Shown here: in pieces, positions 12,652 through 39,720 of the stretch
Layout: each line of letters opens with the position of its first letter
Position numbering within the stretch: position 1 is the first letter of the stretch
From: Escherichia coli
Lineage (GTDB): Bacteria; Pseudomonadota; Gammaproteobacteria; Enterobacterales; Enterobacteriaceae
NCBI RefSeq assembly: GCF_002854065.1
Contig: NZ_CP024147.1
Length of the DNA: 64,000 nucleotides
Direction: 5' to 3' (one strand)
Program-made: the position numbers and the translations under genes
Notes under the pieces: model-generated
Told to the model about the DNA's origin: nothing
Seen by the model: the letters and a program-made list of their open reading frames with translations, nothing else
Database searches by the model: none

Positions 12652-13641
12652 TTAAACCAGTTCGTTCGGGCAGGTTTCACCTTTTTCCAGATTGCTTAAG
12701 TTTTGCAGCGTAGTCTGAGAAATACTGGTCAGAGCTTCTGCTGTCAGGAATGCCTGGTGCCCGGTAAACAGCACGTTGTGGCAGGCGGACAGGCGACGGA
12801 ATACGTCATCCTGGATCACGTCGTTGGATTTATCTTCAAAGAACAGATCGCGTTCGTTCTCATACACGTCCATACCCAACGAACCAATTTTCTGATTTTT
12901 CAGCGCTTCAATTGCTGCCTGAGAATCAATCAATGCACCGCGACTGGTATTGACGATCATCACGCCATTTTTCATCTGATCGAAGGCGGCTTCGTTCAAC
13001 AGATGGTAGTTTTCCGGTGTCAGCGGGCAGTGCAGAGAGATAACGTCTGATTCAGAGAACAGGGTTGGCAGATCGACATACTCCACACCGAGTTCCAGCG
13101 CCGCTGCACTTGGATACGGATCGAACGCCAGCAGACGCATACCAAAACCTTTCAGAATGCGCAGCATCGCCACACCGATTTTACCGGTACCGATAACGCC
13201 TGCCGTTTTGCCATACATAGTAAAGCCAGTCAGACCTTCTAGAGAGAAGTTGGCGTCACGGGTACGCTGATACGCGCGGTGAATACGGCGGTTCAGCGTC
13301 ATCATCATACCGATGGCGTGTTCAGCAACGGCCTCTGGATCATAGGCTGGAACACGGACTACTTTCAGCCCCAGTTCTTTTGCCGCGTCAAGGTCGACGT
13401 TATTGAAACCGGCACAGCGCAGGGCGATATATTTAACGCCGTGCTTTTTCAGCTCTTCCAGCACCGGGCGGCTGCCGTCATCGTTTACGAAAATACATAC
13501 TGCTTCGCAGCCATTGGCAGTTTTAGCGGTTTTTTCCGTCAGCAGAAAGTCAAAAAATTCCAGCTCAAAGCCAAAGGACTCGTTCACCTGTTGCAGGTAC
13601 TTCTTGTCGTACTGTTTTGTGCTATAAACGGCGAGTTTCAT
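12652..13641 (-). CDS. ldhA: Fermentative D-lactate dehydrogenase (NAD-dependent)
   Basis: 329-aa ORF with D-isomer 2-hydroxyacid dehydrogenase NAD-binding motif GVIGTGKIG. Confidence 0.95.
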   Translation of the reverse strand: MKLAVYSTKQYDKKYLQQVNESFGFELEFFDFLLTEKTAKTANGCEAVCIFVNDDGSRPVLEELKKHGVKYIALRCAGFNNVDLDAAKELGLKVVRVPAYDPEAVAEHAIGMMMTLNRRIHRAYQRTRDANFSLEGLTGFTMYGKTAGVIGTGKIGVAMLRILKGFGMRLLAFDPYPSAAALELGVEYVDLPTLFSESDVISLHCPLTPENYHLLNEAAFDQMKNGVMIVNTSRGALIDSQAAIEALKNQKIGSLGMDVYENERDLFFEDKSNDVIQDDVFRRLSACHNVLFTGHQAFLTAEALTSISQTTLQNLSNLEKGETCPNELV

Positions 13642-13848: not shown

Positions 13849-16488
13849 ATGCTGGGTAAATATAAAGCCGTTCTCGCGCTGTTATTACTGATTATTCTTG
13901 TGCCGTTGACGCTGCTGATGACGCTCGGGCTGTGGGTTCCCACGCTGGCGGGCATCTGGCTACCGCTCGGGACACGTATTGCATTAGATGAAAGCCCACG
14001 CATTACGCGTAAAGGTTTAATCATTCCCGATCTCCGTTATCTGGTGGGAGATTGTCAGCTTGCGCATATCACCAACGCCAGCCTTTCACATCCCAGCCGC
14101 TGGTTATTGAACGTCGGCACGGTAGAACTTGATTCTGCTTGTCTGGCGAAATTGCCGCAGACGGAGCAATCGCCAGCTGCTCCAAAAACCCTCGCGCAAT
14201 GGCAGTCCATGCTGCCTAACACCTGGATCAATATTGATAAACTGATTTTTTCTCCCTGGCAGGAATGGCAGGGAAAACTCTCTCTCGCATTAACCTCCGA
14301 TATCCAGCAACTGCGTTATCAGGGCGAAAAAGTTAAATTTCAAGGCCAGCTGAAAGGGCAACAACTTACAGTCAGCGAACTGGATGTCGTCGCGTTTGAA
14401 AATCAGCCGCCGGTTAAACTGGTGGGGGAATTTACTATGCCGCTAGTGCCGGATGGACTTCCTGTAAGTGGTCATGCTACTGCGACGTTAAACTTGCCGC
14501 AGGAACCGTCACTGGTAGATGCCGAGCTGGACTGGCAGGAAAATAGCGGGCAATTGATTGTGCTGGCACGGGATAACGGCGATCCGTTGCTCGATTTGCC
14601 GTGGCAAATTACGCGTCAACAATTGACCGTAAGCGATGGTCGCTGGAGCTGGCCGTATGCAGATTTTCCTTTGAGTGGCCGACTGGGTGTCAAAGTCGAC
14701 AACTGGCAGGCAGGGCTTGAGAACGCTCTGGTCAGCGGACGACTGAGTGTGCTGACCCAGGGGCAAGCGGGTAAGGGCAACGCGGTGCTTAATTTTGGCC
14801 CAGGAAAATTAAGCATGGATAACAGCCAGCTGCCTCTGCAGCTGACCGGTGAAGCGAAACAGGCGGACCTCATTTTATATGCCCGTTTACCTGCGCAGGT
14901 AAGTGGAAGTCTGTCTGACCCAACGCTGACCTTTGAGCCAGGCGCGTTACTTCGTTCAAAGGGAAGAGTCATCGATTCGCTGGACATCGATGAAATCCGC
15001 TGGCCTTTAGCGGGTGTAAAAGTCACCCAACGTGGTGTTGACGGACGTTTGCAGGCCATTTTGCAGGCGCATGAAAATGAACTGGGCGATTTCGTGCTGC
15101 ATATGGATGGGCTGGCGAATGATTTTCTCCCTGACGCTGGCCGCTGGCAGTGGCGCTACTGGGGAAAAGGGAGTTTTACACCGATGAATGCCACCTGGGA
15201 TGTCGCAGGAAAAGGTGAGTGGCATGACAGCACGATTACGCTGACCGATCTCTCCACCGGTTTCGACCAGTTACAATACGGTACGATGACGGTAGAAAAG
15301 CCGCGATTAATTCTCGACAAGCCCGTCGTCTGGGTACGTGACGCACAGCATCCCTCCTTCAGCGGCACGCTGTCACTGGACGCCGGGCAAACGCTGTTCA
15401 CTGGCGGCAGTGTGTTACCGCCATCAACCTTAAAATTTAGCGTCGATGGGCGCGATCCGACGTATTTCCTCTTTAAAGGCGATTTACATGCTGGTGAGAT
15501 TGGCCCGGTTCGGGTAAATGGTCGCTGGGACGGTATTCGTCTGCGCGGTAATGCCTGGTGGCCTAAACAATCACTGACTGTATTCCAGCCGCTGGTGCCA
15601 CCCGACTGGAAGATGAACTTACGCGATGGTGAACTGTATGCTCAGGTTGCATTTTCTGCTGCGCCTGAACAAGGATTCCGCGCGGGAGGGCACGGCGTGT
15701 TGAAAGGCGGTAGTGCCTGGATGCCAGATAATCAGGTTAACGGTGTCGATTTTGTCCTGCCTTTCCGTTTTGCCGATGGAGCCTGGCATCTGGGGACTCG
15801 CGGCCCCGTTACGTTGCGAATTGCCGAAGTGATTAATCTGGTGACAGCGAAAAATATTACGGCTGATTTGCAAGGGCGTTATCCGTGGACTGAAGAAGAA
15901 CCATTGCTGTTGACTGATGTTAGCGTCGATGTGTTAGGCGGTAACGTGCTGATGAAACAATTACGTATGCCGCAACATGACCCGGCGCTGTTGCGGCTGA
16001 ATAATCTCTCATCCAGCGAACTGGTTAGCGCCGTCAATCCGAAACAATTTGCCATGTCCGGGGCATTTAGTGGTGCATTGCCGTTATGGCTGAACAATGA
16101 AAAATGGATTGTCAAAGAGGGCTGGTTGGCAAACGCGGGGCCGATGACGCTGCGTCTGGATAAAGACACTGCAGATGCGGTGGCCAAAGACAATATGACC
16201 GCTGGAACTGCCATCAACTGGTTGCGTTATATGGAAATCAGTCGCTCATCAACAAGGATTAATTTAGATAATCTCGGTGTGTTAACCATGCAGGCCAACA
16301 TTTCGGGCACCAGTCGCGTCGATGGTAAAAGCGGTACGGTAAACCTTAATTATCACCATGAAGAGAATATTTTTACGTTATGGCGCAGTTTACGCTTTGG
16401 CGATAATCTCCAGGTATGGCTGGAGCAGAATGCCCAGCTACCGGAAACTGGCTGCCCATCAGGAAAAGAGTGTGAGGAAAAACAATGA
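13849..16488 (+). CDS. ydbH: AsmA-like inner-membrane protein YdbH (TamB/YhdP paralogue)
   Basis: 879-aa ORF with N-terminal TM anchor and a long beta-rich periplasmic region. Confidence 0.88.
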   Translation: MLGKYKAVLALLLLIILVPLTLLMTLGLWVPTLAGIWLPLGTRIALDESPRITRKGLIIPDLRYLVGDCQLAHITNASLSHPSRWLLNVGTVELDSACLAKLPQTEQSPAAPKTLAQWQSMLPNTWINIDKLIFSPWQEWQGKLSLALTSDIQQLRYQGEKVKFQGQLKGQQLTVSELDVVAFENQPPVKLVGEFTMPLVPDGLPVSGHATATLNLPQEPSLVDAELDWQENSGQLIVLARDNGDPLLDLPWQITRQQLTVSDGRWSWPYADFPLSGRLGVKVDNWQAGLENALVSGRLSVLTQGQAGKGNAVLNFGPGKLSMDNSQLPLQLTGEAKQADLILYARLPAQVSGSLSDPTLTFEPGALLRSKGRVIDSLDIDEIRWPLAGVKVTQRGVDGRLQAILQAHENELGDFVLHMDGLANDFLPDAGRWQWRYWGKGSFTPMNATWDVAGKGEWHDSTITLTDLSTGFDQLQYGTMTVEKPRLILDKPVVWVRDAQHPSFSGTLSLDAGQTLFTGGSVLPPSTLKFSVDGRDPTYFLFKGDLHAGEIGPVRVNGRWDGIRLRGNAWWPKQSLTVFQPLVPPDWKMNLRDGELYAQVAFSAAPEQGFRAGGHGVLKGGSAWMPDNQVNGVDFVLPFRFADGAWHLGTRGPVTLRIAEVINLVTAKNITADLQGRYPWTEEEPLLLTDVSVDVLGGNVLMKQLRMPQHDPALLRLNNLSSSELVSAVNPKQFAMSGAFSGALPLWLNNEKWIVKEGWLANAGPMTLRLDKDTADAVAKDNMTAGTAINWLRYMEISRSSTRINLDNLGVLTMQANISGTSRVDGKSGTVNLNYHHEENIFTLWRSLRFGDNLQVWLEQNAQLPETGCPSGKECEEKQ

Positions 16489-16670
16489 AAATAGTGATAG
16501 CCGCGTTTGCGTCCTCTTTTATGTTGGTTGGTTGCACGCCTCGCATTGAAGTGGCTGCGCCGAAAGAGCCAATCACCATTAATATGAACGTTAAAATTGA
16601 GCATGAAATCATCATTAAAGCGGATAAGGACGTTGAAGACCTGCTCAAAACCCGTAGCGATCTATTTTGA
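16485..16670 (+). CDS. ynbE: Lipoprotein YnbE
   Basis: 61-aa ORF with lipobox MLVGC; 4-bp overlap (ATGA) with the ydbH stop. Confidence 0.85.
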   Translation: MKIVIAAFASSFMLVGCTPRIEVAAPKEPITINMNVKIEHEIIIKADKDVEDLLKTRSDLF

Positions 16671-16674
16671 GGTG

Positions 16675-17001
16675 ATGATGAAAAGAACATTACTCATAGC
16701 TGTATGGGCCATTGGCCTGATGAGCGACAGTGCAATGGCTTTAACCCTGAACGAAGCCAGAAGTCAGGGGCGGGTAGGTGAAACGCTTAACGGTTACCTG
16801 GTGGCGCTACAAACGGATGCCGAAACACAGGCATTAGTAAAAGATATTAATGAAGCTCGTAACCATAGTTATCAACAACTGGCAAAGCAAAATAATGTAT
16901 CCACTAAAGAGATAGCCAAACTGGCTGGACAAAAGCTTGTTGCTCGCGCGAAGTCGGGGCAATATGTTCAGGGAATTAATGGTAAATGGTTGCGCAAATA
17001 A
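16675..17001 (+). CDS. ydbL: Periplasmic protein YdbL (DUF1318)
   Basis: 108 aa from MMKRTLLIAVWAIGLMSDSAMA (signal peptide); start 5 bp after the ynbE stop. Confidence 0.82.
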   Translation: MMKRTLLIAVWAIGLMSDSAMALTLNEARSQGRVGETLNGYLVALQTDAETQALVKDINEARNHSYQQLAKQNNVSTKEIAKLAGQKLVARAKSGQYVQGINGKWLRK

Positions 17002-17408
17002 ATTATAGTTGGCTACAAAATGTATCTATTAATGATCTTTTACAGTATTTAAACTGACGTTAGCATGCTTAATTACCGTGGGTATTTCTACAAAAACCTT
17101 ATATATCCTTCCCTTAAATAACAAATCATTACCAATATATATGTAATCACAAAATATATATGCAGCGTCAATGAATTATTAGTGTGTTTTTGTTTTTTGT
17201 CGTTAATTTTTAGATTGAAGTGAGTTTTTTGTGGAATATAATTCCATCAACTGTTTTTTTGTATGCTTTTACTTGCCTGATTTTAATATTGATTTTGTGA
17301 ATTATATAAGCATTTCTTTATTGCTTATTTCACTATGAATATTTACTACGATTTATCTTCAAATTCTGCATGGCTTGTTACGCACGGTCTAGATCTAAGG
17401 AATTTTAT

Positions 17409-20400
17409 ATGCAAAGGAAAAAATTATTGTCTGTTTGTGTTGCCATGGCGTTAAGTAGCCAGACATGGGCTGCGGATACTTCAATACCCGACTCAACCGA
17501 AAAAACACGTAAGTCCAGTAAGATAACATGTCCGGCAAATATTCATTCCCTGAGCAAAGAGCAGCTAGAAAATTTATCCGCGGAGTGCAGAGAAAATAAA
17601 GATAGTGCAGTTTTACCATGGGCAGCTGCAGGTCTTGCTGCAGTAGCTACGGGAATTGCTATATATACCTTAAGTGACGATGACAATCACCACCATAATA
17701 ACTCCCCAGTTCCGGATGATGGCGGTGATACGCCAGTTCCGCCAGACGACGGCGGTGATACGCCGGTTCCGCCAGATGACGGCGGTGATACGCCGGTTCC
17801 GCCAGATGACGGCGGTGATACGCCAGTTCCGCCAGATGACGGCGGTGATACGCCAGTTCCGCCAGATGACGGCGATGATACGCCGGTTCCGCCAGATGAC
17901 GGCGGTGATACGCCAGTTCCGCCAGATGACGGCGGTGATACGCCAGTTCCGCCAGATGACGGCGGTGATACGCCGGTTCCACCAGATGATGGCGGTGATA
18001 CGCCAGTTCCAGACGACGGCGGTGATACGCCTGTTCCGCCAGACGATGGTGGCGATACCCCGGTTAAACACGATCCTGTCGTCTATAAAAATGACGTAAC
18101 CTGGGATCAGGACGCGAAAACCGTCAAAATTCGCGAAACCACCTTTACCTACAGCCAAAATGCCGATGGGAGTTACACCTTAACCGCGCCTGATGGCCTG
18201 ACGACGATAGTCAAGGGCTGGACAGTCCATGACGACAGCAACACCGTCATCTTTGATGGCGTAAATACGGCAGGTGGCATCACCTGGAGCTACGACGATG
18301 ATGGGCTCATCCATATCACTAAAGAGGCCGGTGTCGTTGTTGATGGCACAACCGGAACTGCGATTGATTTTGGTAATGCGATCATCACCGATCAGGGCGG
18401 CAATACGGCGCTGAATGGCGGTACTGTCATGACGGTTGAGGGTGACAACATCACCCTCAACAACGACGGTAAAACGACCGCCATCGGCGAGGGTTCGGTC
18501 GTTGGTATCCTTACTGGTGACGATATCACTATCAATAACAACGGCGAGACGGAAGTTGACGGCGGTACCGCAGTAATCATCAATGGCGATAATGCTACGC
18601 TGAACACTGCGGGCGACTCGACCATCACCAATGGTGGTACGGGTAGCCTTATCAATGGCGATAATGCGCGGGTCGATAATCAAGGTACCATGAGCGTTGA
18701 CGGTGAGAATTCCACTGGCTCGAAAATTGTCGGTGACGGTGCCACCATCAAACAGGAAGGCGACTTATACGTAAGCGGTGGTGCGCACGGTATTGACGTT
18801 GACGGCAATGATACGTTCGTTAGCAACAAAGGTAATATTACGGTCATCGAAGATAACTCTATTGGCATGCTGCTTGATGGTGATGGCGTCAGCGTGATCA
18901 ACATGGGCGACCTCAATGTTGGTCAGGCCGCAGCGGGTGAAAATGCCATTGGCATTCAGATCGACGGTGATAATGCGACATTTGTTAACGTTGGTGATAT
19001 TTCCGCGACCAATGCCGGAACCGGTGTCAGCGTTGCTGGGGATAAAGCTAATATTTCACTCGCGGGTGGGTTAGACGTTGGGGATTTCTCCACCGGTCTT
19101 GATGTCTCTGGCAATAATAACAACATGACGCTGGCGACTTATGAGCTGAATGTGACAGGGCAAAAAGCGACGGGTGTTAATGTTTCGGGTGATGGCAATA
19201 CGATTGAAATCGCAGGCAGCATTCTGGTTGATAAAGATCAGAAAGCCGATAATGCGCAACCTTACTTCTTTAATCCCTCAACCGGCGTAAATATCAGCGG
19301 TAATAACAATGACGTCACGCTGGATGGTCAGTTAACCGTTGTTGCTGATAGCGAAACCACTACGCGTTCCTATGCAAGTTACGACGGTGCTCAGGAGCAC
19401 ATTGCGGGTATTGTTATTGCTGGCGATGACAATACCTTCACGCTTAATGGCGGTGTCCATTTTGTCGGTGAAAAAAATGTCATGGATGATGGCTCAAAAC
19501 CTGCCGCATCTCGTCGTGGTATCGGAGATACACCGCTTATGAGCGTTGATGGGCATTCCTCAGTCTACCTCAATGGTGAGTCAACCATCAGCGGTGAGTT
19601 CCCGCTGGGTTTCGAAAATCTCATTCAACTGAGTAATGGCGCGGAGCTGGAGATTGGCGCTGACGCAACGTTTGATATGAGTGATGTGGATTCTTTCACT
19701 TATTATTATCGTGTAGCGTTATCCACTATTAGTATTGATTATGGTGCGAAGGCGACAAACAACGGTGAAGTGGAACTGAAAAATATCGGTTTTGCGGCTG
19801 CCTGGAATAAAGATTCAACGGTAATCAATAACGGATCCATTGGCCTGGCGATGTACGATTTTGGTACCGACCCGGCACCAAAAGTCTTTGACGTTGAATA
19901 CGGTGGGATTGGCGTTAACAATGGTACCATGACCACCAAAATGATGAATCAGCACAGTGTGCTGAATTATCCGGCAGAGTGGAACTTGTCTGATGGTACC
20001 TCTTTCAATAACAAGGCATTAGGGCTGACAGGTATGCTTGCCAGCTACTCGTCATCCATTCTGAACGGCGAAACGGGCATTATTGATATGTATGGCCGTG
20101 GCAGTGTAGGGATGCTAGCCATCGATAAATCAACCGCGGATAACGAAGGGCAAATCACCCTGGATACGCTGTGGGTTGATGAAAATGATGAAACATCGCT
20201 GCGTAATAATGTTGCAAATAGCACGGCGAAAGATTTCGGTGTGGGAATGGCTTCAGGTACCGATGCCTATAATGGGGCATTAACTAAAGCCACGGCAACC
20301 AACCACGAGAATGGTGTGATTACTGTCTACAACGCCGGTGCGGGGATGGCGGCGTATGGGAATACTAATACGGTCATTAACCAGGGAACCATCAACCTGG

Positions 20401-23273
20401 AGAAAAATGAAAATTACAACGATTCTCTCGGTGTGAATAAACTCGTCGGCATGGCGGTTTATCACGAAGGCACCGCCATTAATGACCAGACAGGCGTAAT
20501 CAACATTAACGCGGAAAATGGTCAGGCATTCTATAACGATGGCACTGGGCTTATTATCAACTATGGCACAATTTGTACCTTTGGCGTTTGCCAGGGGGCC
20601 GATGAATATAATCCAACGGATAATTATATTGCCGATTTATATGATCATGGCGATGTATTAAGTTCTGCGGGTGAGACCGTATTATTATCGTCAGGTGCGA
20701 TTATCAACGGGGATGTCACCAGTGCGGGTGCTGTTAAAAATGGAACGATCAGGATACTCGAAAATGGTGCGCTGGTTAACGAGTCGAGCGGAACCATTAG
20801 CTCAGCCATCGTCGTGAATGAAGGCGGTGCGTTAACCAATGAAGGTGTATTGAACACGGTGACTCTGGAAGGAGGAACCTTCAATAACAACGGAACGCTT
20901 AATGACGTCGTAAAAATTGAGAAAAACAGCAACGCGGTAATTAATAACACCGGTTCCCTGTCAACTTTACAACTTCACGATGGTACGGTGAATAACAGCG
21001 GTATTGCGTCGGCGCGCGTTAACGCTCAGGGCGATGCGGTATTCAATAACCTTGCAGGCGGCGAGGCGCGTAAAGGCGCGATTCTCTATAACTCTGCGGT
21101 AGTGAATAACGCGGGTACCTGGAAAATGGGTTATCAGGATGAAAACAACAATGCCGGGACGCTGGATATTGACGATAAGTCAACGTTCAACAACAGCGGC
21201 AAACTCATCCTTGATAACAGCAAAAACGCCATTCGCTTCCAGGGCAGCAATGCTAACGCCACGTTATATAACACCGGTGAAATGACGCTGGATGCCGCAT
21301 TAGGTGCGGGCGCTATTCACTACGACGATGGCGCCAGCCAGTTTATTAACAAGGGCGTGGTGGATGCGAAAGTCACCGTGGCGGTAAGTACTGCCGGTGC
21401 GACAGAAAGCGATGCCTTCTTGTGGAACCAGGATGGCGGGGTAATTAACTTCGATAAAGACAACGCCAGCGCGGTTAAATTCACCCACAACAACTATGTT
21501 GCTCTCAACGATGGTGTAATGAACATCAGCGGCAACAACGCCGTGGCGATGGAAGGCGATAAAAACGCACAGCTGGTTAACAACGGTGTTATCAATCTCG
21601 GTACCGAAGGCACCACCGATACCGGATTGACTGGTATGCAACTGGATGCCAATGCCACCGCCGATGCGGTAATTGAGAACAACGGCACGATCAATATTTT
21701 TGCTAACGACTCGTTTGCGTTCAGCGTACTGGGCACAGAAGGTCATATCGTTAACAACGGTACGGTGGTGATTGCCGACGGCGTGACTGGTTCGGGGTTG
21801 ATTAAGCAGGGCGACAGCGTGAATGTGGAAGGGGTGAACGGCAACAGCGGTAACAATACCGAAGTGCATTACACCGACTACACGTTGCCGGACATGCCAA
21901 GCTCTTACACCACTTCACCTTTCAGTGAAACGACTGATAGCGGTAGTAGCGATGGCAGCAGTAACAATCTTAACGGCTATATCGTCGGTACCAACGTTGA
22001 TGGCAGCGCCGGTAAACTGAAGGTCAACAACGCCAGCATGAATGGTGTCGGGATCAACACCGGTTTCGCCGCCGGTACGGCAGACACCACGGTCAGTTTC
22101 GACAACGTGGTGGAAGGCATCAACCTGACCGACGCCGATGCCATCACCTCAACGTCCGTGGTATGGACCGCCAAAGGCAGCACCGATGCCAGCGGCAACG
22201 TTGACGTCATCATGAGCAAAAACGCCTACACCGATGTGGCGACCGATGCTTCGGTGAACGATGTGGCGAAGGTACTGGATGCGGGTTACACCAATAACGA
22301 GCTGTATACCAGCCTGAACGTGGGCACCACTGCTGAACTGAATAGCGCCCTGAAGCAGGTGAGCGGTAGCCAGGCGACCACGGTATTCCGTGAAGCGCGT
22401 GTGTTAAGCAACCGCTTCAGCATGCTGGCGGATGCCGCGCCGAAGGTGGGTAACGGTCTGGCGTTCAACGTTGTTGCGAAAGGCGATCCACGTGCCGAGT
22501 TAGGTAATAATACCGAATACGACATGCTGGCATTGCGTAAAACCATCGACCTGAGCGAAAGCCAGACGATGAGTCTGGAGTACGGTATCGCTCGTCTCGA
22601 TGGTGATGGTGCGCAGAAAGCGGGTGGTAATGGCGTCACAGGTGGTTATAGCCAGTTCTTTGGCCTGAAACATCAGATGTCCTTCGACAACGGCATGAAC
22701 TGGAATAACGCATTGCGTTATGACGTTCACAACCTTGACAGTAGCCGTTCGATTGCATTTAGCAACACAAACAAAACGGCTGATACCGACGTGAAGCAGC
22801 AGTACCTGGAGTTCCGCAGCGAAGGGGCGAAGACTTTCGAACCGAGCGAAGGACTGAAGGTTACGCCATATGCGGGTGTAAAACTGCGTCACTCGCTGGA
22901 AGGCGGCTATCAGGAGCGCAATGCCGGAGACTTTAACCTGAGCATGAACAGCGGCAGCGAAACGGCGGTGGACAGCATCGTCGGGCTGAAACTGGACTAC
23001 GCAGGGAAAGGCGGCTGGAGCGCGAATGCGACGCTGGAAGGCGGGCCGAACCTGAGCTACAGCAAGAGCCAGCGCACGGCAAGCCTTGCAGGGGCAGGCA
23101 GCCAGCACTTTAACGTCGATGACGGTCAGAAGGGCGGCGGTATCAACAGCCTGGCGAGCGTCGGCGTGAAGTACAGTAGCAAAGAAAGTTCGCTGAATCT
23201 GGATGCGTATCACTGGAAAGAGGACGGCATCAGCGACAAAGGCGTGATGCTGAACTTTAAGAAAACGTTCTAA
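17409..23273 (+). CDS. ydbA: Autotransporter (type Va) adhesin-like protein YdbA, apparently intact
   Basis: About 1954 aa: signal peptide MQRKKLLSVCVAMALSSQTWA, PPDDGGDTPV tandem repeats, long Gly/Asn/Thr-rich beta-helix passenger, C-terminal beta-barrel ending ...MLNFKKTF. Confidence 0.85.
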   Translation: MQRKKLLSVCVAMALSSQTWAADTSIPDSTEKTRKSSKITCPANIHSLSKEQLENLSAECRENKDSAVLPWAAAGLAAVATGIAIYTLSDDDNHHHNNSPVPDDGGDTPVPPDDGGDTPVPPDDGGDTPVPPDDGGDTPVPPDDGGDTPVPPDDGDDTPVPPDDGGDTPVPPDDGGDTPVPPDDGGDTPVPPDDGGDTPVPDDGGDTPVPPDDGGDTPVKHDPVVYKNDVTWDQDAKTVKIRETTFTYSQNADGSYTLTAPDGLTTIVKGWTVHDDSNTVIFDGVNTAGGITWSYDDDGLIHITKEAGVVVDGTTGTAIDFGNAIITDQGGNTALNGGTVMTVEGDNITLNNDGKTTAIGEGSVVGILTGDDITINNNGETEVDGGTAVIINGDNATLNTAGDSTITNGGTGSLINGDNARVDNQGTMSVDGENSTGSKIVGDGATIKQEGDLYVSGGAHGIDVDGNDTFVSNKGNITVIEDNSIGMLLDGDGVSVINMGDLNVGQAAAGENAIGIQIDGDNATFVNVGDISATNAGTGVSVAGDKANISLAGGLDVGDFSTGLDVSGNNNNMTLATYELNVTGQKATGVNVSGDGNTIEIAGSILVDKDQKADNAQPYFFNPSTGVNISGNNNDVTLDGQLTVVADSETTTRSYASYDGAQEHIAGIVIAGDDNTFTLNGGVHFVGEKNVMDDGSKPAASRRGIGDTPLMSVDGHSSVYLNGESTISGEFPLGFENLIQLSNGAELEIGADATFDMSDVDSFTYYYRVALSTISIDYGAKATNNGEVELKNIGFAAAWNKDSTVINNGSIGLAMYDFGTDPAPKVFDVEYGGIGVNNGTMTTKMMNQHSVLNYPAEWNLSDGTSFNNKALGLTGMLASYSSSILNGETGIIDMYGRGSVGMLAIDKSTADNEGQITLDTLWVDENDETSLRNNVANSTAKDFGVGMASGTDAYNGALTKATATNHENGVITVYNAGAGMAAYGNTNTVINQGTINLEKNENYNDSLGVNKLVGMAVYHEGTAINDQTGVININAENGQAFYNDGTGLIINYGTICTFGVCQGADEYNPTDNYIADLYDHGDVLSSAGETVLLSSGAIINGDVTSAGAVKNGTIRILENGALVNESSGTISSAIVVNEGGALTNEGVLNTVTLEGGTFNNNGTLNDVVKIEKNSNAVINNTGSLSTLQLHDGTVNNSGIASARVNAQGDAVFNNLAGGEARKGAILYNSAVVNNAGTWKMGYQDENNNAGTLDIDDKSTFNNSGKLILDNSKNAIRFQGSNANATLYNTGEMTLDAALGAGAIHYDDGASQFINKGVVDAKVTVAVSTAGATESDAFLWNQDGGVINFDKDNASAVKFTHNNYVALNDGVMNISGNNAVAMEGDKNAQLVNNGVINLGTEGTTDTGLTGMQLDANATADAVIENNGTINIFANDSFAFSVLGTEGHIVNNGTVVIADGVTGSGLIKQGDSVNVEGVNGNSGNNTEVHYTDYTLPDMPSSYTTSPFSETTDSGSSDGSSNNLNGYIVGTNVDGSAGKLKVNNASMNGVGINTGFAAGTADTTVSFDNVVEGINLTDADAITSTSVVWTAKGSTDASGNVDVIMSKNAYTDVATDASVNDVAKVLDAGYTNNELYTSLNVGTTAELNSALKQVSGSQATTVFREARVLSNRFSMLADAAPKVGNGLAFNVVAKGDPRAELGNNTEYDMLALRKTIDLSESQTMSLEYGIARLDGDGAQKAGGNGVTGGYSQFFGLKHQMSFDNGMNWNNALRYDVHNLDSSRSIAFSNTNKTADTDVKQQYLEFRSEGAKTFEPSEGLKVTPYAGVKLRHSLEGGYQERNAGDFNLSMNSGSETAVDSIVGLKLDYAGKGGWSANATLEGGPNLSYSKSQRTASLAGAGSQHFNVDDGQKGGGINSLASVGVKYSSKESSLNLDAYHWKEDGISDKGVMLNFKKTF
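17706..18064 (+). repeat. About 12 tandem copies of a 30-bp repeat (one 27-bp unit) encoding PPDDGGDTPV within ydbA
   Basis: Near-identical head-to-tail units GATGACGGCGGTGATACGCCAGTTCCGCCA with occasional wobble changes; one unit encodes GDDTPV. The mirror-image ORFs in the track here are repeat artefacts. Confidence 0.9.
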
Positions 23274-23294
23274 TTTTTAGCATGTGATACACAA

Positions 23295-23326
23295 ACCGCA
23301 ACGCTGATACAGGTTGCGGTTTTTTA
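23295..23326 (+). terminator. Rho-independent terminator downstream of ydbA
   Basis: ACCGCAAC...GTTGCGGT hairpin followed by TTTTT; a partial REP-like GCCGGATGCGACGC follows. Confidence 0.8.
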
Positions 23327-23492
23327 TTGCCGGATGCGACGCTTGACTTATCTTTTGCTGTCTAATGTTTTGGTGTCTTTCAGGACAATAGTGCTACTCA
23401 TCCAGAAATCTTGTTTACGCCTTCGCATTATTTATCTCTTTTCGTTTCTATACTGATTTTTCTTAATCCGTTTTATTACAGGGCAGGGTGCG

Positions 23493-24353
23493 ATGAGCAG
23501 CAATACATTTACTCTCGGTACAAAATCCGTTAACCGTCTTGGTTATGGCGCGATGCAACTGGCAGGTCCTGGGGTTTTTGGCCCCCCAAGAGATCGCCAC
23601 GTCGCTATAACTGTGCTGCGCGAGGCGCTGGCATTGGGCGTCAATCACATTGATACCAGCGACTTTTATGGTCCGCACGTCACCAATCAGATTATCCGCG
23701 AAGCGCTTTATCCTTACTCTGACGACCTGACAATTGTCACTAAAATTGGTGCGCGGCGTGGAGAGGACGCTTCCTGGTTGCCCGCCTTTTCTCCGGCAGA
23801 GCTGCAAAAAGCGGTACACGATAATCTACGTAATCTCGGCCTGGACGTACTGGATGTGGTTAACCTGCGCGTGATGATGGGGGATGGTCATGGCCCGGCG
23901 GAAGGATCGATTGAAGCCAGCCTGACCGTGCTGGCAGAGATGCAACAACAAGGCCTGGTAAAACATATTGGCCTAAGCAACGTCACACCGACGCAGGTTG
24001 CAGAGGCGCGCAAGATTGCCGAAATCGTCTGTGTGCAGAACGAATACAACATTGCTCATCGTGCTGATGACGCAATGATTGAAGCTTTGGCTCGTGACGG
24101 CATTGCCTACGTGCCGTTCTTTCCGCTCGGGGGCTTTACGCCGCTGCAATCTTCCACGCTTTCCGATGTTGCTGCGAGCTTGGGTGCAACACCAATGCAG
24201 GTGGCGCTGGCGTGGCTGTTACAACGTTCACCGAATATTTTGCTGATCCCAGGGACGTCTTCTGTTGCGCATTTACGGGAGAATATGGCTGCTGAAAAAT
24301 TGCATCTTTCTGAGGAAGTGTTGTCTACGTTGGATGGTATTTCGCGAGAATAA
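23493..24353 (+). CDS. pdxI: Aldo-keto reductase, pyridoxine 4-dehydrogenase PdxI (YdbC)
   Basis: 286-aa ORF with AKR-family motifs (IDTSDFYG, GLSNV). Confidence 0.88.
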   Translation: MSSNTFTLGTKSVNRLGYGAMQLAGPGVFGPPRDRHVAITVLREALALGVNHIDTSDFYGPHVTNQIIREALYPYSDDLTIVTKIGARRGEDASWLPAFSPAELQKAVHDNLRNLGLDVLDVVNLRVMMGDGHGPAEGSIEASLTVLAEMQQQGLVKHIGLSNVTPTQVAEARKIAEIVCVQNEYNIAHRADDAMIEALARDGIAYVPFFPLGGFTPLQSSTLSDVAASLGATPMQVALAWLLQRSPNILLIPGTSSVAHLRENMAAEKLHLSEEVLSTLDGISRE

Positions 24354-24399: not shown

Positions 24400-24416
24400 A
24401 ATGGCATGGAGTGCAT

Positions 24417-25715
24417 ATGTTTAAGCCCAGGATTTGCAGCTGGATAGGTTTACTTCCCCTGTTTATGCTGAGTCTTCCAGTACAGGCGGAACTTCGATGC
24501 GTTGCAAATGCAGTTGATATTGAACCTTTTTTTTCTGCGGCTACCGCTGAAGATAAACAACAAGTTGAACAAGCTATCAACAGTAGCGTGAATCTTGTCC
24601 CCTTCGGTTTATCTGCATCGGACTGGAAAGTGCATCGTGGCGATTTAGTGGTAGAAGGTAATATAGAGAGTAATCAAAAATTGATTGTTCTTGGCAATTT
24701 GACAGTCAAAGGTAATATTTCCACTTTCTCTCTTTCTAATCCATGGGTTATTCTCGGTAACGTGACGGCAACGAATATAGTTACGGATTCACCACTGTTA
24801 ATTACCGGTTCGATAAATGCAAGTGGACTGGTATTTATCGACTCATATTACGATAATCCGTCTACGATTAAGGGGAGTATTAATGCGCGCGGGATATTTA
24901 TCAATGACATAATTGCACCTGTTGTTGCGTCTTCGACAAATAGTGAATTCATGGTCCGTGCGAGTGACAAAAATGACACTGAAAATGTCAAAAAAGCGCT
25001 GATGATAATAAATCCTGATGCATATTATTGGGGTCTAATAAATGATGAAGATGCTCTGAAAGAAATTTTTAAGCGAAGCAATATTCGCATGGCAGGGAAT
25101 GTCTGTAATCAGATGAAAAAAGAAGCGCTGTTTCGCCCTAAGCCTTCTCCTGAGTTAGTGCAGGAATTGCAAATGCTGGATGAAGGCAACGTTGCTGCAT
25201 TTGAAGGACGAGATATTGCGACATTTGATCTTGCCATAATGCGAACTCTCCCAAGGCTTAAAGGAATTTCAGCTAACCTACGCAAACAACTTATTAATAG
25301 CAATGATGGACAAACGATTGCAAGTATGGCGAGATATATGCCTGACAATGAGATTCTGGAGTTGACCGATCAGCAATTGGGTTACCAGCCTGTTGTTCTG
25401 GGGTTGCTCGACCGTGAACCGCTCTCTGTCGAAATAATGACGCGAATGAGTCATCTACCTGATGGTGTCGGTCCGTTGAATCTTGCGCTACGTGAAAATC
25501 TCCCTCTGGATATCGTCATGACTCTGGCGAAAAGAGATTGGGATATGATCATTCAGGAGCTTTATAAAGATGCGTGGTTATTGCCCGAATCCATTATTGA
25601 TGGCTATATCCGCAGTGATGATTCCTCTATTCGTCAGGTCGGTGCTGGAGGACAACTCACCTACAATCAGGCAATGCAGTTGGCGAACGATTCATCAAAC
25701 GATGTTGTCACAAGC
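24417..25715 (+). pseudogene. ydbD: ydbD N-terminal fragment (disrupted by IS1)
   Basis: Signal-peptide ORF MFKPRICSWIGLLPLFMLSLPVQA... runs into IS1 at 25716 and stops 27 nt inside it; the two halves total about 770 codons, matching the K-12 YdbD length as I recall it. Confidence 0.8.
25707..25715. repeat. Left 9-bp target-site duplication GTCACAAGC of IS1 copy 2
   Basis: Identical 9-mer immediately flanks both ends of the IS1 (25707..25715 and 26484..26492). Confidence 0.9.
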
Positions 25716-25770
25716 GGTGATGCTGCCAACTTACTGATTTAGTGTATGATGGTGTTTTTGAGGTGCTCCA

Positions 25771-26046
25771 GTGGCTTCTGTTTCTATCAGCTGTCCCTCC
25801 TGTTCAGCTACTGACGGGGTGGTGCGTAACGGCAAAAGCACTGCCGGACATCAGCGCTATCTCTGCTCTCACTGCCGTAAAACATGGCAACTGCAGTTCA
25901 CTTACACCGCTTCTCAACCCGGTACGCACCAGAAAATCATTGATATGGCCATGAATGGCGTTGGATGCCGGGCAACCGCCCGCATTATGGGCGTTGGCCT
26001 CAACACGATTTTCCGCCATTTAAAAAACTCAGGCCGCAGTCGGTAA
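25771..26046 (+). CDS. insA: IS1 InsA
   Basis: 91-aa ORF identical to insA of copy 1. Confidence 0.93.
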
Positions 26047-26468
26047 CCTCGCGCATACAGCCGGGCAGTGACGTCATCGTCTGCGCGGAAATGGACGAAC
26101 AGTGGGGATACGTCGGGGCTAAATCGCGCCAGCGCTGGCTGTTTTACGCGTATGACAGTCTCCGGAAGACGGTTGTTGCGCACGTATTCGGTGAACGCAC
26201 TATGGCGACGCTGGGGCGTCTTATGAGCCTGCTGTCACCCTTTGACGTGGTGATATGGATGACGGATGGCTGGCCGCTGTATGAATCCCGCCTGAAGGGA
26301 AAGCTGCACGTAATCAGCAAGCGATATACGCAGCGAATTGAGCGGCATAACCTGAATCTGAGGCAGCACCTGGCACGGCTGGGACGGAAGTCGCTGTCGT
26401 TCTCAAAATCGGTGGAGCTGCATGACAAAGTCATCGGGCATTATCTGAACATAAAACACTATCAATAA
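25965..26468 (+). CDS. insB: IS1 InsB reading frame (InsAB' by -1 frameshift)
   Basis: 167-aa ORF; differs from copy 1 by one residue (S vs R). Confidence 0.9.
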
Positions 26469-26483
26469 GTTGGAGTCATTACC

Positions 26484-26492
26484 GTCACAAGC
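26484..26492. repeat. Right 9-bp target-site duplication GTCACAAGC of IS1 copy 2
   Basis: Direct repeat of 25707..25715. Confidence 0.9.
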
Positions 26493-27500
26493 TTAGCGTT
26501 AAAGCTGGCAGAGATGAAACACCATGGTCAATTGTTGCGGATGACGCCACAAGAGAGTGACAAAATAGCAGTATATTTATACCAAAAATTCGAGAATGAC
26601 GATGATCTAATAGGTGCGTTATTTTTAGCGTTGCCAGATAACTTACAGTTTAATTTTGTTAAAAGGATGGAGAAAAAATCCCCTGCCTACTTTTGCTGTC
26701 GGGATATGCAGATAATTCACTCTGACGCTGCTTTACAACGGTTATTGACACGTTTCAACGATCCTGAGGGGTGGAGTAATCTGGCGAAAAATCAGTATCT
26801 GAGCACGTCGATGAAACAAAAAATTTGGCAACGTGCTTTATCGCATCGGAAAAATAATCCCAAAGCAGATTCAGATGCATATGAAACCAGCGCTGATATG
26901 ATTTTGTCTGAGCTTATCAGCTACGGTGAAGTTGATGACCAGATGCTATTAAATGCCACCTCTCTGATACGTTCGGACGACTGGGACTTTTTAGAGAGAG
27001 CATTAATTAGTTGGGATAATTTACCCGCTGTTGTTCTCAAGGAATTACAGCAAAACACGCCACGCAATGATATTTGGGCGAAGTTTTTTCTGAGGCAGGA
27101 AAACAGTTCCCGTGCGCAGGTTAACGAAGCGTTACGTGTTTATTATGCACTAGACCCCGATGCGTTAGCACAACTGGATGTACTGGCAAAACAACCGGAT
27201 CGTATATGGTGGAGTACACTGGCGAAAAGCAATCTCACATTTTTCAAGTTCGGCGCACTTAACAACCGCCACACACCGCCTGCGGTACTGGCGGCAGAAA
27301 TTGATCCCGAGTGGTGGATTGTGGCGATGAATAATCCCCGTTTTCCAGTTGATGTATTAAAGGCGAGGCTGAAACGTGATCCTTTGCTGGCGTTAGAGCT
27401 TGTTAACCCTGAACTGGATTTAGTTCGCCAGCTGGCGCTTAACGGTAAGACGCGCGCAATACGGGAACAAGCGATGAGAAAACTTGATGAGTTGTATTGA
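26484..27500 (+). pseudogene. ydbD: ydbD C-terminal fragment (disrupted by IS1)
   Basis: Open frame continues from the duplicated target site to the stop at 27500 (ORF track shows it from an internal Met at 26514). Confidence 0.8.
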
Positions 27501-27669
27501 ATAACAGCGTAATAATTTTTAACCACTTGATTTATTGGGATAATCATTCCTGACAGTGAGTCCCCAATACCTTGATATATTCTGAATTTTTAATGAAGCG
27601 TCGTGTTGCGATATCTCCGTCAGGGGAATTGATGCACCATAGCGCAAACCGAATTATCAAGGATTGATA

Positions 27670-28275
27670 ATGACGCTCTACCAGATAAAACCGCTCTTTC
27701 AGTCGCTGTTAAGGCCGACGATGTTTTGGCTTTATAAGCACCATGTTACAGCGAATCACATCACTCTTGCTGCACTGGCGCTTTCTCTTATTACCGGATT
27801 GCTGTTGATGTTGGTCGCACAACCCATCCTCTTTTTGCTATTGCCCATCGTGCTTTTTATCCGTATGGCACTCAATGCGCTGGATGGCATGTTGGCGCGT
27901 GAGTGCAATCTGCAAACACGTCTGGGGGCGATTTTGAATGAAACTGGCGATGTTATTTCCGATATTGCGCTCTATTTACCGTTTTTATTTTTACCAGAAA
28001 GTAACGCATCACTCGTAATACTCATGTTATTTTTCACCATATTGACTGAGTTTTGCGGTTTACTCGCGCAGACGATTAACAGTATTCGCAGTTATGCCGG
28101 TCCATTCGGCAAAAGCGATCGTGCGTTAATATTTGGGTTGTGGGGGCTGGCCGTTGCCATTTATCCACAGTGGATGCAATGGAATAATCTTTTATGGGGC
28201 ATTGCTTCAATTCTGCTTATCTGGACTGCGATTAATCGTTGTCGGAGTGTGCTCCTGATGAGTGCTGAAAGATAA
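27670..28275 (+). CDS. ynbA: CDP-alcohol phosphatidyltransferase family inner-membrane protein YnbA
   Basis: About 201 aa, multi-TM, with a D-G-x2-A-R...G-x3-D-x3-D type motif (ALDGMLARE...GDVISD). Confidence 0.8.
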   Translation: MTLYQIKPLFQSLLRPTMFWLYKHHVTANHITLAALALSLITGLLLMLVAQPILFLLLPIVLFIRMALNALDGMLARECNLQTRLGAILNETGDVISDIALYLPFLFLPESNASLVILMLFFTILTEFCGLLAQTINSIRSYAGPFGKSDRALIFGLWGLAVAIYPQWMQWNNLLWGIASILLIWTAINRCRSVLLMSAER

Positions 28276-29171
28276 TGCTGGAAAAATCTCTGGCAACACT
28301 TTTCGCGTTGTTAATTTTAGCAACGCTGATAAACCGTTTTCGGGTATGGCGGTTACCGGAGAGAAAAGAGGATGAAGTTACATTACGTATTCGTACCTGG
28401 TGGGGTATCGTCATTTGTTTTTCACTGGTGATTTCAGGTCCACGCTGGATGACGTTGACGTTTTTTGCGCTGATAAGTTTTCTGGCATTGAAAGAATATT
28501 GTACGCTTATATCCGTACATTTTCCGCGTTGGTTATATTGGGTTATTCCTCTTAACTATTTGCTTATCGGTTTTAATTGCTTTGAGCTGTTTCTGTTATT
28601 TATACCTTTGGCTGGGGTTCTGATATTAACCACCTGGCGAGTTTTAGTAGGTGATACCTCCGGTTTTCTGCATACCGTGAGCGCCATTTTTTGGGGCTGG
28701 ATAATGACCGTTTTCGCCTTGAGTCATGCCGCCTGGTTATTAATGTTGCCAACCACAAATACCCAGGGCGGGGCGTTACTGGTGTTATTTCTTTTGGCGT
28801 TAACAGAGTCAAACGATATTGCACAGTATTTATGGGGGAAATCCTGCGGCAGAAGAAAAGTGGTCCCCAAAGTCAGCCCGGGAAAAACGCTGGAAGGTCT
28901 GGTGGGGGGCGTAATCACCACCATGATTGCGTCACTGATTATTGGGCCGTTGCTGACACCGCTAAATACATTACAGGCATTATTAGCGGGTTTGTTAATT
29001 GGTATTAGTGGTTTTTGCGGCGATGTAGTGATGTCAGCCATCAAACGAGATATTGGTGTTAAAGATAGCGGAAAACTATTACCAGGACATGGCGGACTCC
29101 TTGACAGGATTGACTCATTAATTTTCACCGCTCCGGTATTTTTTTATTTTATTCGCTACTGCTGTTACTGA
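28275..29171 (+). CDS. ynbB: CDP-diglyceride synthetase (CdsA)-like membrane protein YnbB
   Basis: 298-aa multi-TM ORF; C-terminal region resembles the CdsA cytidylyltransferase signature (...LPGHGGLLDRIDSL); overlaps the ynbA stop (TAATG). Confidence 0.8.
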   Translation: MLEKSLATLFALLILATLINRFRVWRLPERKEDEVTLRIRTWWGIVICFSLVISGPRWMTLTFFALISFLALKEYCTLISVHFPRWLYWVIPLNYLLIGFNCFELFLLFIPLAGVLILTTWRVLVGDTSGFLHTVSAIFWGWIMTVFALSHAAWLLMLPTTNTQGGALLVLFLLALTESNDIAQYLWGKSCGRRKVVPKVSPGKTLEGLVGGVITTMIASLIIGPLLTPLNTLQALLAGLLIGISGFCGDVVMSAIKRDIGVKDSGKLLPGHGGLLDRIDSLIFTAPVFFYFIRYCCY

Positions 29172-29186
29172 AGGAAAATAGAGAAA

Positions 29187-32250
<3,064 letters not shown>

Positions 32251-38280: not shown

Positions 38281-39720
38281 ATGTCAGTACCCGTTCAACA
38301 TCCTATGTATATTGATGGACAGTTTGTTACCTGGCGTGGAGACGCATGGATTGATGTGGTAAACCCTGCTACAGAGGCTGTCATTTCCCGCATTCCCGAT
38401 GGTCAGGCCGAGGATGCCCGTAAGGCAATCGATGCAGCAGAACGTGCACAACCTGAATGGGAAGCGTTGCCTGCCATTGAACGCGCCAGTTGGTTGCGCA
38501 AAATCTCCGCCGGGATCCGCGAATGCGCCAGTGAAATCAGTGCGCTGATTGTTGAAGAAGGGGGCAAGATCCAGCAGCTGGCTGAAGTCGAAGTGGCTTT
38601 TACTGCGGACTATATCGATTACATGGCTGAGTGGGCACGGCGTTATGAAGGCGAGATTATTCAAAGCGATCGTCCAGGAGAAAATATTCTACTATTTAAA
38701 CGTGCACTTGGCGTGACTACCGGCATTCTGCCGTGGAACTTCCCGTTCTTCCTCATTGCCCGCAAAATGGCTCCCGCTCTTTTGACCGGTAATACCATCG
38801 TCATTAAACCCAGTGAATTTACGCCAAACAATGCGATTGCATTCGCCAAAATCGTCGATGAAATAGGCCTTCCGCGCGGCGTGTTTAACCTTGTTCTGGG
38901 GCGTGGTGAAACCGTTGGGCAAGAACTGGCGGGTAACCCAAAGGTCGCAATGGTCAGTATGACAGGCAGCGTCTCTGCAGGTGAGAAGATCATGGCGACT
39001 GCGGCGAAAAACATCACCAAAGTGTGCCTGGAACTGGGGGGTAAAGCACCAGCTATCGTAATGGACGATGCCGATCTTGAACTGGCAGTCAAAGCCATCG
39101 TTGATTCACGCGTCATTAATAGTGGGCAAGTGTGTAACTGTGCAGAACGTGTTTATGTACAGAAAGGCATTTATGATCAGTTCGTCAATCGGCTGGGTGA
39201 AGCGATGCAGGCGGTTCAATTTGGTAACCCCGCTGAACGCAACGACATTGCGATGGGGCCGTTGATTAACGCCGCGGCGCTGGAAAGGGTCGAGCAAAAA
39301 GTGGCGCGCGCAGTAGAAGAAGGGGCGAGAGTGGCGTTGGGTGGCAAAGCGGTAGAGGGGAAAGGATATTATTATCCGCCGACATTGCTGCTGGATGTTC
39401 GCCAGGAAATGTCGATTATGCATGAGGAAACCTTTGGCCCGATGCTGCCGGTGGTCGCATTTGACACGCTGGAAGATGCTATCTCAATGGCTAATGACAG
39501 TGATTACGGCCTGACCTCATCAATCTATACCCAAAATCTGAACGTCGCGATGAAAGCCATTAAAGGGCTGAAGTTTGGTGAAACTTACATCAACCGTGAA
39601 AACTTCGAAGCTATGCAAGGCTTCCACGCCGGATGGCGTAAATCCGGTATTGGCGGCGCAGATGGTAAACATGGCCTGCATGAATATCTGCAGACCCAGG
39701 TGGTTTATTTACAGTCTTAA
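38281..39720 (+). CDS. aldA: Lactaldehyde dehydrogenase (NAD-dependent aldehyde dehydrogenase A)
   Basis: 479-aa ORF with ALDH catalytic Cys and Glu motifs (GQVCNCAERV, LELGGKAP). Confidence 0.93.
   Translation: MSVPVQHPMYIDGQFVTWRGDAWIDVVNPATEAVISRIPDGQAEDARKAIDAAERAQPEWEALPAIERASWLRKISAGIRECASEISALIVEEGGKIQQLAEVEVAFTADYIDYMAEWARRYEGEIIQSDRPGENILLFKRALGVTTGILPWNFPFFLIARKMAPALLTGNTIVIKPSEFTPNNAIAFAKIVDEIGLPRGVFNLVLGRGETVGQELAGNPKVAMVSMTGSVSAGEKIMATAAKNITKVCLELGGKAPAIVMDDADLELAVKAIVDSRVINSGQVCNCAERVYVQKGIYDQFVNRLGEAMQAVQFGNPAERNDIAMGPLINAAALERVEQKVARAVEEGARVALGGKAVEGKGYYYPPTLLLDVRQEMSIMHEETFGPMLPVVAFDTLEDAISMANDSDYGLTSSIYTQNLNVAMKAIKGLKFGETYINRENFEAMQGFHAGWRKSGIGGADGKHGLHEYLQTQVVYLQS

Follow-up and report, generated by a model that had tools for sequence, protein, structure and literature searches.

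In Escherichia coli K-12 MG1655, ydbL is followed by feaR, feaB, tynA, paaZ, paaA-K, paaX, paaY, and ynbG before ydbA is reached, and 19,185 bp separate the stop of ydbL from the start of ydbA. A first-pass annotation of the DNA analyzed here had given this order and a distance of about 19 kb, and the MG1655 map agrees. The fea/tynA/paa locus is enriched in mastitis strains. Heterogeneity has been noted for the paa locus, which lies between ydbH-ynbE-ydbL and ynbC, is present in about 80% of phylogroup A strains, and is subject to several independent internal deletions (PMC4951805). CFT073 lacks the region, and 0 of 28 O157:H7 isolates were tynA positive by PCR (PMC4640556). A 2026 paper on the metabolic capacities of E. 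coli lineages makes no mention of paa. A paa-less ydbL-ydbA haplotype of the O157:H7 type is already known from the literature as a strain-to-strain polymorphism.

We examined this locus in a 64-kb stretch of E. coli DNA, which we call the window. The flanks have the same order and orientation as in K-12 (ldhA, ydbH, ynbE, and ydbL to one side, with ydbA, pdxI, ydbD, and ynbA-D to the other), but the 17 catabolic and regulatory genes that K-12 carries between ydbL and ydbA are missing, and ydbA, which is broken by IS2 and IS30 in K-12, is intact. The ydbL stop codon occupies positions 16999 to 17001, and ydbA follows after 407 bp, as anticipated by the first-pass description of a direct succession across a gap of about 400 bp. 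The features referred to below are as follows.

12652-13641, minus strand: ldhA.
13849-16488, plus strand: ydbH (NCBIfam YdbH equivalog, 1399 bits).
16085-16112: left exchange point, from site-by-site calls of K-12-type versus E1V33-type positions.
16485-16670, plus strand: ynbE, allele of the putative donor type (Pfam Lipoprotein_19).
16678-17001, plus strand: ydbL, allele of the putative donor type (Pfam DUF1318).
17002-17408, plus strand: ydbL-ydbA spacer, 407 bp, AT rich, 5' of the putative donor-type ydbA.
17409-23273, plus strand: BigA/YdbA-family autotransporter gene, intact, 1954 aa, probably mostly of donor type.
17715-18065, plus strand: 30-nt tandem repeat, 11.8 copies with 91% matches, encoding PVPPDDGGDT near the autotransporter N terminus.
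22451-22880, plus strand: K-12-like patch within the block, present in the window and strain A16 and absent in EDL933.
23420-23443: right exchange point, 50 to 70 bp upstream of pdxI.
23493-24353, plus strand: pdxI (ydbC), of the E. coli type and the first gene beyond the right end of the putatively imported block.

The only open reading frames inside the block are ydbH, ynbE, ydbL, and ydbA. In the window, ydbD lies downstream of pdxI, and ydbD and ynbA-D together span 24411 to 32250.

No fea, tynA, or paa gene was detected anywhere in the 64-kb window, either as a DNA match to the K-12 interval or in searches with the 17 K-12 proteins, for which the sole hits were paralogue matches of 32% and 26% to an aldehyde dehydrogenase gene at 38281-39720. 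The first-pass annotation was thus right that the cluster is missing between ydbL and ydbA. Using positions 16950 to 17460 as a junction query against 5426 complete E. coli genomes, we found this junction in 374 (6.9%), always on the chromosome. Identity was 95 to 99% for 311 of the 374 matches; among the matches listed, O157:H7 and O55:H7 genomes, including EDL933, stood at 98.1 to 98.5%. The other 63 were at least 99% identical, and those listed came from otter, mink, frog, duck, cattle, human, and one unspecified source. Strain D8, from river water, carries the junction as well. The backgrounds of carriers include O157:H7, O55:H7, O157:H16, O78, and wildlife and water isolates. The paaA-K operon was present in 3171 of the 5426 genomes and a 1-kb paaA probe in 3146, leaving paaA missing from 42%. 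A chimeric junction-plus-paaA query matched 3520 genomes, which is exactly 374 + 3146. The two sets therefore do not overlap: by this count paaA is on no replicon of any junction-bearing genome (0/374), and the cluster does not sit elsewhere in any carrier. Furthermore, the exact YdbL protein of the window is widespread in public assemblies, and in none of its 10 distinct contexts did feaR come next; in all 10, what followed was the autotransporter gene or an IS1-mediated deletion. The first-pass annotation had proposed that phenylethylamine and phenylacetate catabolism would be lost unless the genes lay elsewhere. The counts for carriers, together with the PCR result for O157:H7, bear this out at the population level, and it is well supported from gene content that carriers would be unable to degrade 2-phenylethylamine or phenylacetate by the TynA/FeaB/Paa route.

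With its divergent ynbE and ydbL alleles, its spacer sequence (98.3 to 98.5% identical to O157:H7 and O55:H7 genomes at 100% coverage), and the lack of paa at the population level, the window has the O157:H7-type haplotype. It shares with O157:H7 strain EDL933 the ynbE and ydbL alleles (99.7% DNA identity over 16110-17001), a 98.3% identical spacer with one 5-bp and one 1-bp indel, the right breakpoint before pdxI, and the lack of fea/tynA/paa. Unlike the window, with its single 1954-aa open reading frame, EDL933 has the autotransporter split into two coding sequences of 1011 and 819 aa (L024 9466-15180), and its left breakpoint lies about 70 bp further left.

Compared with K-12, the window is a mosaic. 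Identity is about 99% up to approximately 16098, falls to 72 to 86% through the end of ydbH, ynbE, and ydbL (about 81% for the DNA of 16110-17001), is undetectable in the spacer, and is so low in the first 4 kb of ydbA that this part is almost unalignable; from approximately 23409 onward, it is 98 to 99% again. The proteins follow the same pattern. Residues 1 to 745 of YdbH are of the E. coli type, with 99.2% amino acid identity to K-12, and residues 746 to 879, of the putative donor type, have 90.3%; YnbE has 90.2% and YdbL only 72.2%.

A scan of YdbL with one genome per species gave 100% identity to Escherichia sp. E1V33, 90% to E. whittamii, 88% to "E. coli" SCPM-O-B-8794 (the representative of its own GTDB species), and 81% to E. 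albertii. E1V33 belongs to the GTDB species Escherichia sp004211955, which is separated from E. coli by average nucleotide identity and gene flow criteria and lies outside the E. coli biological species (PMC9830988). A literature search on strain E1V33 itself returned an unrelated match only. Over 16110-17001 the window and E1V33 are 99.4% identical in DNA, and in the 5' part of ydbH the window is 87.6% identical to E1V33 and 87.7% identical to E. whittamii. The contig of E1V33 breaks off within ydbA, in the 30-nt repeat array. A second sp004211955 genome, GCA_004323655.1 (contig RHJP01000030, here L026), carries the full locus and was aligned with the window along its length, with the following identities.

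9001 to about 16150 (left flank): about 88%.
16154-17800: 96 to 100% (99 to 100% up to 17650).
17937-19900 (ydbA passenger): 86 to 97%.
19934-21534: 95 to 100%, mostly 98 to 100%.
21534-21834: 91 to 94%.
21834-22434: 98 to 100%.
22434-22934: 79 to 89%, where the window is K-12-like.
22934-23434: 95 to 100%.
pdxI: 82 to 93%.

The window and sp004211955 are therefore 98 to 100% identical from the end of ydbH through ynbE, ydbL, and the spacer, and also in large parts of ydbA, in a neighborhood that is otherwise about 88% identical, which is species-level divergence. The sp004211955 order is ydbL-ydbA-pdxI-azoR; as in the window, ydbL leads directly to ydbA with no fea or paa genes. Unlike in the window, pdxI is followed straight by azoR and hrpA, without ydbD and ynbA-D (L026 19565-22640), and only a C-terminal 819-aa part of ydbA is called as a gene (L026 16886-19345). 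Our sample of this species comprised two genomes and one read set assembly.

In the window, K-12-type sites give way to E1V33-type sites at 16085-16112, and the reverse change falls at 23420-23443. Such sharp changes of nearest relative at both ends of a collinear set of genes are those of an import by homologous recombination between Escherichia species. The right switch is common to the window, D8, EDL933, and A16; on the left, EDL933 and D8 change type at 16012-16031, and A16 shows a mosaic. Over 16180-17700 (1521 bp), 7 fixed differences (0.46%) separate the four E. coli carriers from the two sp004211955 genomes; among the carriers, variation is limited to singletons, one shared site, and small indels. 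The mosaic structure and its breakpoints, the near-identity to sp004211955, and the absence of paaA from all carriers are direct observations. Putting the probability at roughly 75%, we propose that the window acquired its paa-less haplotype of the O157:H7 type through allelic replacement of a block of about 7.3 kb from an sp004211955-like lineage and not through a local deletion.

Under this proposal, the block (approximately 16.1 to 23.43 kb of the window) would have come from a non-coli Escherichia lineage, represented by sp004211955 (E1V33), and would have brought in the last 134 codons of ydbH, ynbE, ydbL, the spacer, ydbA, and the intergenic DNA downstream. The resident E. coli segment would have been swapped out by crossovers within ydbH and just upstream of pdxI. 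With a donor that had no fea or paa genes between ydbL and ydbA, the recipient would be left with 407 bp in place of the 19.2 kb of K-12; if the recipient carried the cluster beforehand, as we suppose, about 19 kb would have been removed. Transfer would have run from the sp004211955-like lineage to E. coli. This direction is favored because a single pair of breakpoints explains both the loss of likeness to K-12 and the gain of likeness to E1V33. The shared right end and the single allele group point to one introduction. However, the left breakpoints differ by 50 to 150 bp among carriers, which calls for either multiple events or secondary recombination; minor later exchanges within E. coli would account for both the ragged left edge and the patch at 22451-22880. 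Likewise, because the ydbA passenger (17.9 to 19.9 kb) is only 86 to 97% identical, either the sampled sp004211955 strains are not the exact donor or later exchanges have taken place there.

The first-pass annotation had called the AT-rich spacer typical of H-NS-bound regulatory or recombination-prone regions, and the implied loss at this place is not supported: the exchange points lie 0.9 kb upstream of it, in ydbH, and 6 kb downstream, before pdxI. The comparison with a paa-carrying strain that it had suggested, run here with K-12, found no detectable K-12 homologue of the spacer, which instead matches E1V33 at 99 to 100%. Overall, that interpretation is partly supported, being right in its call of gene content and phenotype and wrong in its mechanism. 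A genomic island associated with a tRNA gene or an integrase was rejected, as there is no tRNA in the 10- to 30-kb interval, no integrase among the open reading frames of the block, and only chance-level repeats. Chi sites were likewise rejected as the cause of the breakpoints, since none lies between 5597 and 35368. As a separate observation, Chi (GCTGGTGG) is absent from both strands over 5598-35367 (about 30 kb), and the window as a whole holds 11 copies against 1.8 expected by shuffling.

The same gene content has arisen elsewhere in E. coli in another form. About 19% of the genomes have a different paa-less junction with a K-12-type ydbL, as in the B2 strain Nissle 1917. Like the window, Nissle lacks fea and paa, and only an AT-rich spacer (374 bp, 31% GC) separates its ydbL from a large gene of the ydbA family. 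Unlike in the window, its ydbL is of the K-12 type (96% to K-12), its spacer runs collinear with the 64 bp downstream of ydbL and the 317 bp upstream of ydbA in K-12, its ydbA is a different allele (2845 aa), and ydbD is missing. K-12 and Nissle differ by an indel of 18,804 bp (feaR to paaY) whose edges lie 64 bp past ydbL and 13 bp past the paaY stop (L003 6271/6272 and 25075/25076; L004 14669), with no obvious direct repeat at its edges. The Nissle-type junction is an independent route to the same gene content and one of the genuine deletion derivatives in E. coli, which do not look like the window. If the window had arisen in that way, a K-12-like ancestor would have lost feaR to paaY by illegitimate or repeat-mediated recombination, and the spacer would consist of the fused remnants of the ydbL-feaR and paaY-ydbA intergenic regions. 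Deletions of this kind do occur: besides the clean 18.8-kb difference between K-12 and Nissle, some E. coli genomes keep remnants of feaR and paaY between a K-12-type ydbL and ydbA (H134 to H136), and the heterogeneity and independent internal deletions reported for the paa locus (PMC4951805) fit as well. The window, however, retains no fea or paa remnants, and its ynbE and ydbL are 19% diverged in DNA from the K-12 type, with YdbL at 72% protein identity. In global alignments, its spacer was no better matched than shuffled sequence to the Nissle spacer (z = 1.1) or to the fused ydbL-downstream and ydbA-upstream DNA of K-12 (z = 2.4); the same alignment of the Nissle spacer with the K-12 composite gave a z of 51. 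The window is therefore neither a Nissle-type junction nor an in situ deletion derivative of the K-12 cluster, and we regard a local deletion as very improbable.

A more serious competitor to import, albeit an unlikely one, is that the haplotype is an ancient native E. coli allele, kept as an old balanced polymorphism and exported to the sp004211955 lineage. Carriers are found in several backgrounds, and the window-type segment is 87.7% identical to E. whittamii, about the same as the flank (87.6%), whereas the K-12 type is the outlier at 81.5%. Indeed, the K-12-type ydbH 3' end, ynbE, and ydbL are about 81% identical to those of E. whittamii, E. albertii, and sp004211955, against 83 to 88% for the adjacent 5' part of ydbH, so the majority E. 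coli allele appears to sit on an unexpectedly long branch, and the history of the K-12-type allele may not be simple either. Export would nevertheless require the endpoints in sp004211955 to fall, at each end, within about 25 bp of the edges of the E. coli haplotype (16012-16031 in EDL933 and 23420-23443 in all carriers), and import needs just one pair of breakpoints; moreover, an old allele is at odds with a haplotype found in only 6.9% of genomes and with very low diversity. That the cluster is really present and was collapsed or misjoined at a low-complexity spacer has a negligible chance of being right. AT-rich, repeat-rich DNA does break assemblies, as the E1V33 contig illustrates by stopping in the 30-nt array, but 374 complete genomes produced by many laboratories share exactly this junction, as does the draft GCA_900449015.1 (UGBN01000001), whose match to the window is 99.96% across 18.3 kb and takes in the IS1 junction in ydbD, and a misjoin cannot generate divergence in the flanking genes. 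Allelic replacement from an sp004211955-like lineage is thus the reading that we carry forward.

The arrangement of K-12 is also found outside E. coli. The adjacency ydbL-feaR-feaB-tynA-paaZ occurs in Pseudocitrobacter, Pluralibacter, Cedecea, an unnamed enterobacterium, and Escherichia SCPM-O-B-8794 (loci among L007, L014, L017 to L020, and L022), and Raoultella has the same run from ydbL-feaR to paaZ with a 4-kb gap. This adjacency in other enterobacterial genera implies that the position of the cluster predates Escherichia and that its presence is the older state. Repeated loss from an ancestral K-12-like arrangement accounts for the absence of the cluster from E. albertii, E. whittamii, sp004211955, Citrobacter, and some E. 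coli. An insertion in K-12 as the source of the K-12/Nissle indel was rejected because ydbL and feaR are adjacent in Pseudocitrobacter, Pluralibacter, and Cedecea. E. whittamii (L006 10324-11013) and E. albertii (L008 5300-5524) have no ydbA, and their ydbL is followed by pdxI. In E. whittamii, the intergenic DNA still aligns (z = 12) with the spacer of the window and roughly the first 100 bp of ydbA, suggesting that ydbA was deleted there.

The first-pass annotation described the spacer as markedly AT rich with runs of T and A, and this proved accurate. Its GC content is 27.0%, against 49.6% across the window, and it contains T runs of 5 to 7 and one A5 run. Among 63,594 sliding windows of 407 bp it ranks 49th, and the sole cluster of positions below 32% GC in the 64 kb, which has the lowest GC content of the window, contains it. 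Its sequence is 99 to 100% identical to the sp004211955 genomes (100% in E1V33 up to the contig end) and homologous to the ydbL-pdxI intergenic region of E. whittamii (z = 12), so by alignment the spacer is most plausibly the donor's own 5' region of ydbA. The regions upstream of ydbA fall into two nonhomologous classes, that of the window and that of K-12 and Nissle, and both have 27 to 31% GC (28 to 31% in K-12 and Nissle). Low GC common to unrelated classes is consistent with a control region that has kept some property, for example the binding of nucleoid proteins. In being AT-rich DNA upstream of a horizontally acquired or surface protein gene, the spacer resembles H-NS-type regions; a scan with the H-NS consensus (TCGATAAATT, up to 2 mismatches) gave four matches with 2 mismatches, which is uninformative in DNA so AT rich. 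The best sigma-70-like site (TTGAAG-16-TATAAT, 17215-17242, plus strand, 10 of 12 positions) is a candidate ydbA promoter only, and the 3 promoter-like sites found in the spacer against 3.2 expected by shuffling are not evidence of function. The spacer would presumably hold the donor ydbA promoter, and any regulatory role is one that we infer. No terminator was found after ydbL in a terminator scan, no RNA family was found by Rfam in 16400-17900 (E ≤ 1), and repeats in and around the spacer were short direct and inverted ones at chance level, with no duplication resembling a target site.

The gene downstream of the spacer starts at an ATG at 17409, the same start as annotated by PGAP in strain D8, with AAGGAA 6 nt upstream and a signal peptide-like N terminus in the product. 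The protein belongs to the BigA/YdbA autotransporter family, with the BigA_N beta-barrel at residues 224 to 304, the BigA beta-sandwich (BigA_beta) at 1523 to 1606, and a C-terminal autotransporter region. The E values were 1.2e-31 for PF25784 and 1.2e-24 for PF25783. Salmonella BigA (NF033178) has the same BigA_N, BigA_beta, and C-terminal region, which aligns over residues 1313 to 1954, but the window protein scores 1077 bits against a model cutoff of 3400 bits and has a different passenger, so it is a relative within the family and not BigA itself. The gene is intact in the window, D8, and A16 (1951 to 1961 aa), its identity to the L026 locus is patchy (86 to 100%), and the copy number of the 30-nt repeat varies between strains.

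Beyond pdxI, an IS1 element (768 bp, 25716-26483) interrupts ydbD and is bounded by the 9-bp direct repeat GTCACAAGC at 25707-25715 and 26484-26492; its open reading frame (25965-26468) fits the model for the IS1 transposase. Another copy of IS1 occupies 748-1515. The IS1 junction in ydbD had no single-piece match among the complete genomes searched, and the window strain is not one of them. In several other genomes, ydbD carries IS1 at other positions, and the close relative L032 has an IS1-associated deletion from ydbA to ynbD.

The genes ydbH, ynbE, and ydbL form one operon, and the C terminus of YdbH, YnbE, and YdbL are mutually contacting parts of an intermembrane lipid bridge. Because the import begins at YdbH residue 746 and includes YnbE and YdbL, the interacting parts would have moved together. 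We lean, with only slightly better than even confidence, toward a wider claim. The paa-negative state of the whole O157:H7/O55:H7 lineage, and of about 7% of sequenced E. coli, may go back to one interspecies introgression in which a 7.3-kb block of a cryptic, sp004211955-like species, considered reproductively isolated from E. coli, overwrote the resident segment. In one step, this would have removed the 19-kb cluster and supplied a coadapted YdbH C-terminus/YnbE/YdbL lipid bridge module together with a different BigA-family adhesin gene and its AT-rich control region. The proposed interspecies origin adds a modest new detail of a well-known kind and would not surprise population geneticists. 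In practical terms, the message is that this strain belongs to the paa-negative group of E. coli. Mechanistically, its value lies in gene loss by allelic replacement from a lineage already without the genes, rather than by deletion. Finally, the natural hybrids, with an E. coli YdbH N terminus and the YdbH C terminus, YnbE, and YdbL of the putative donor, could inform studies of the lipid bridge.
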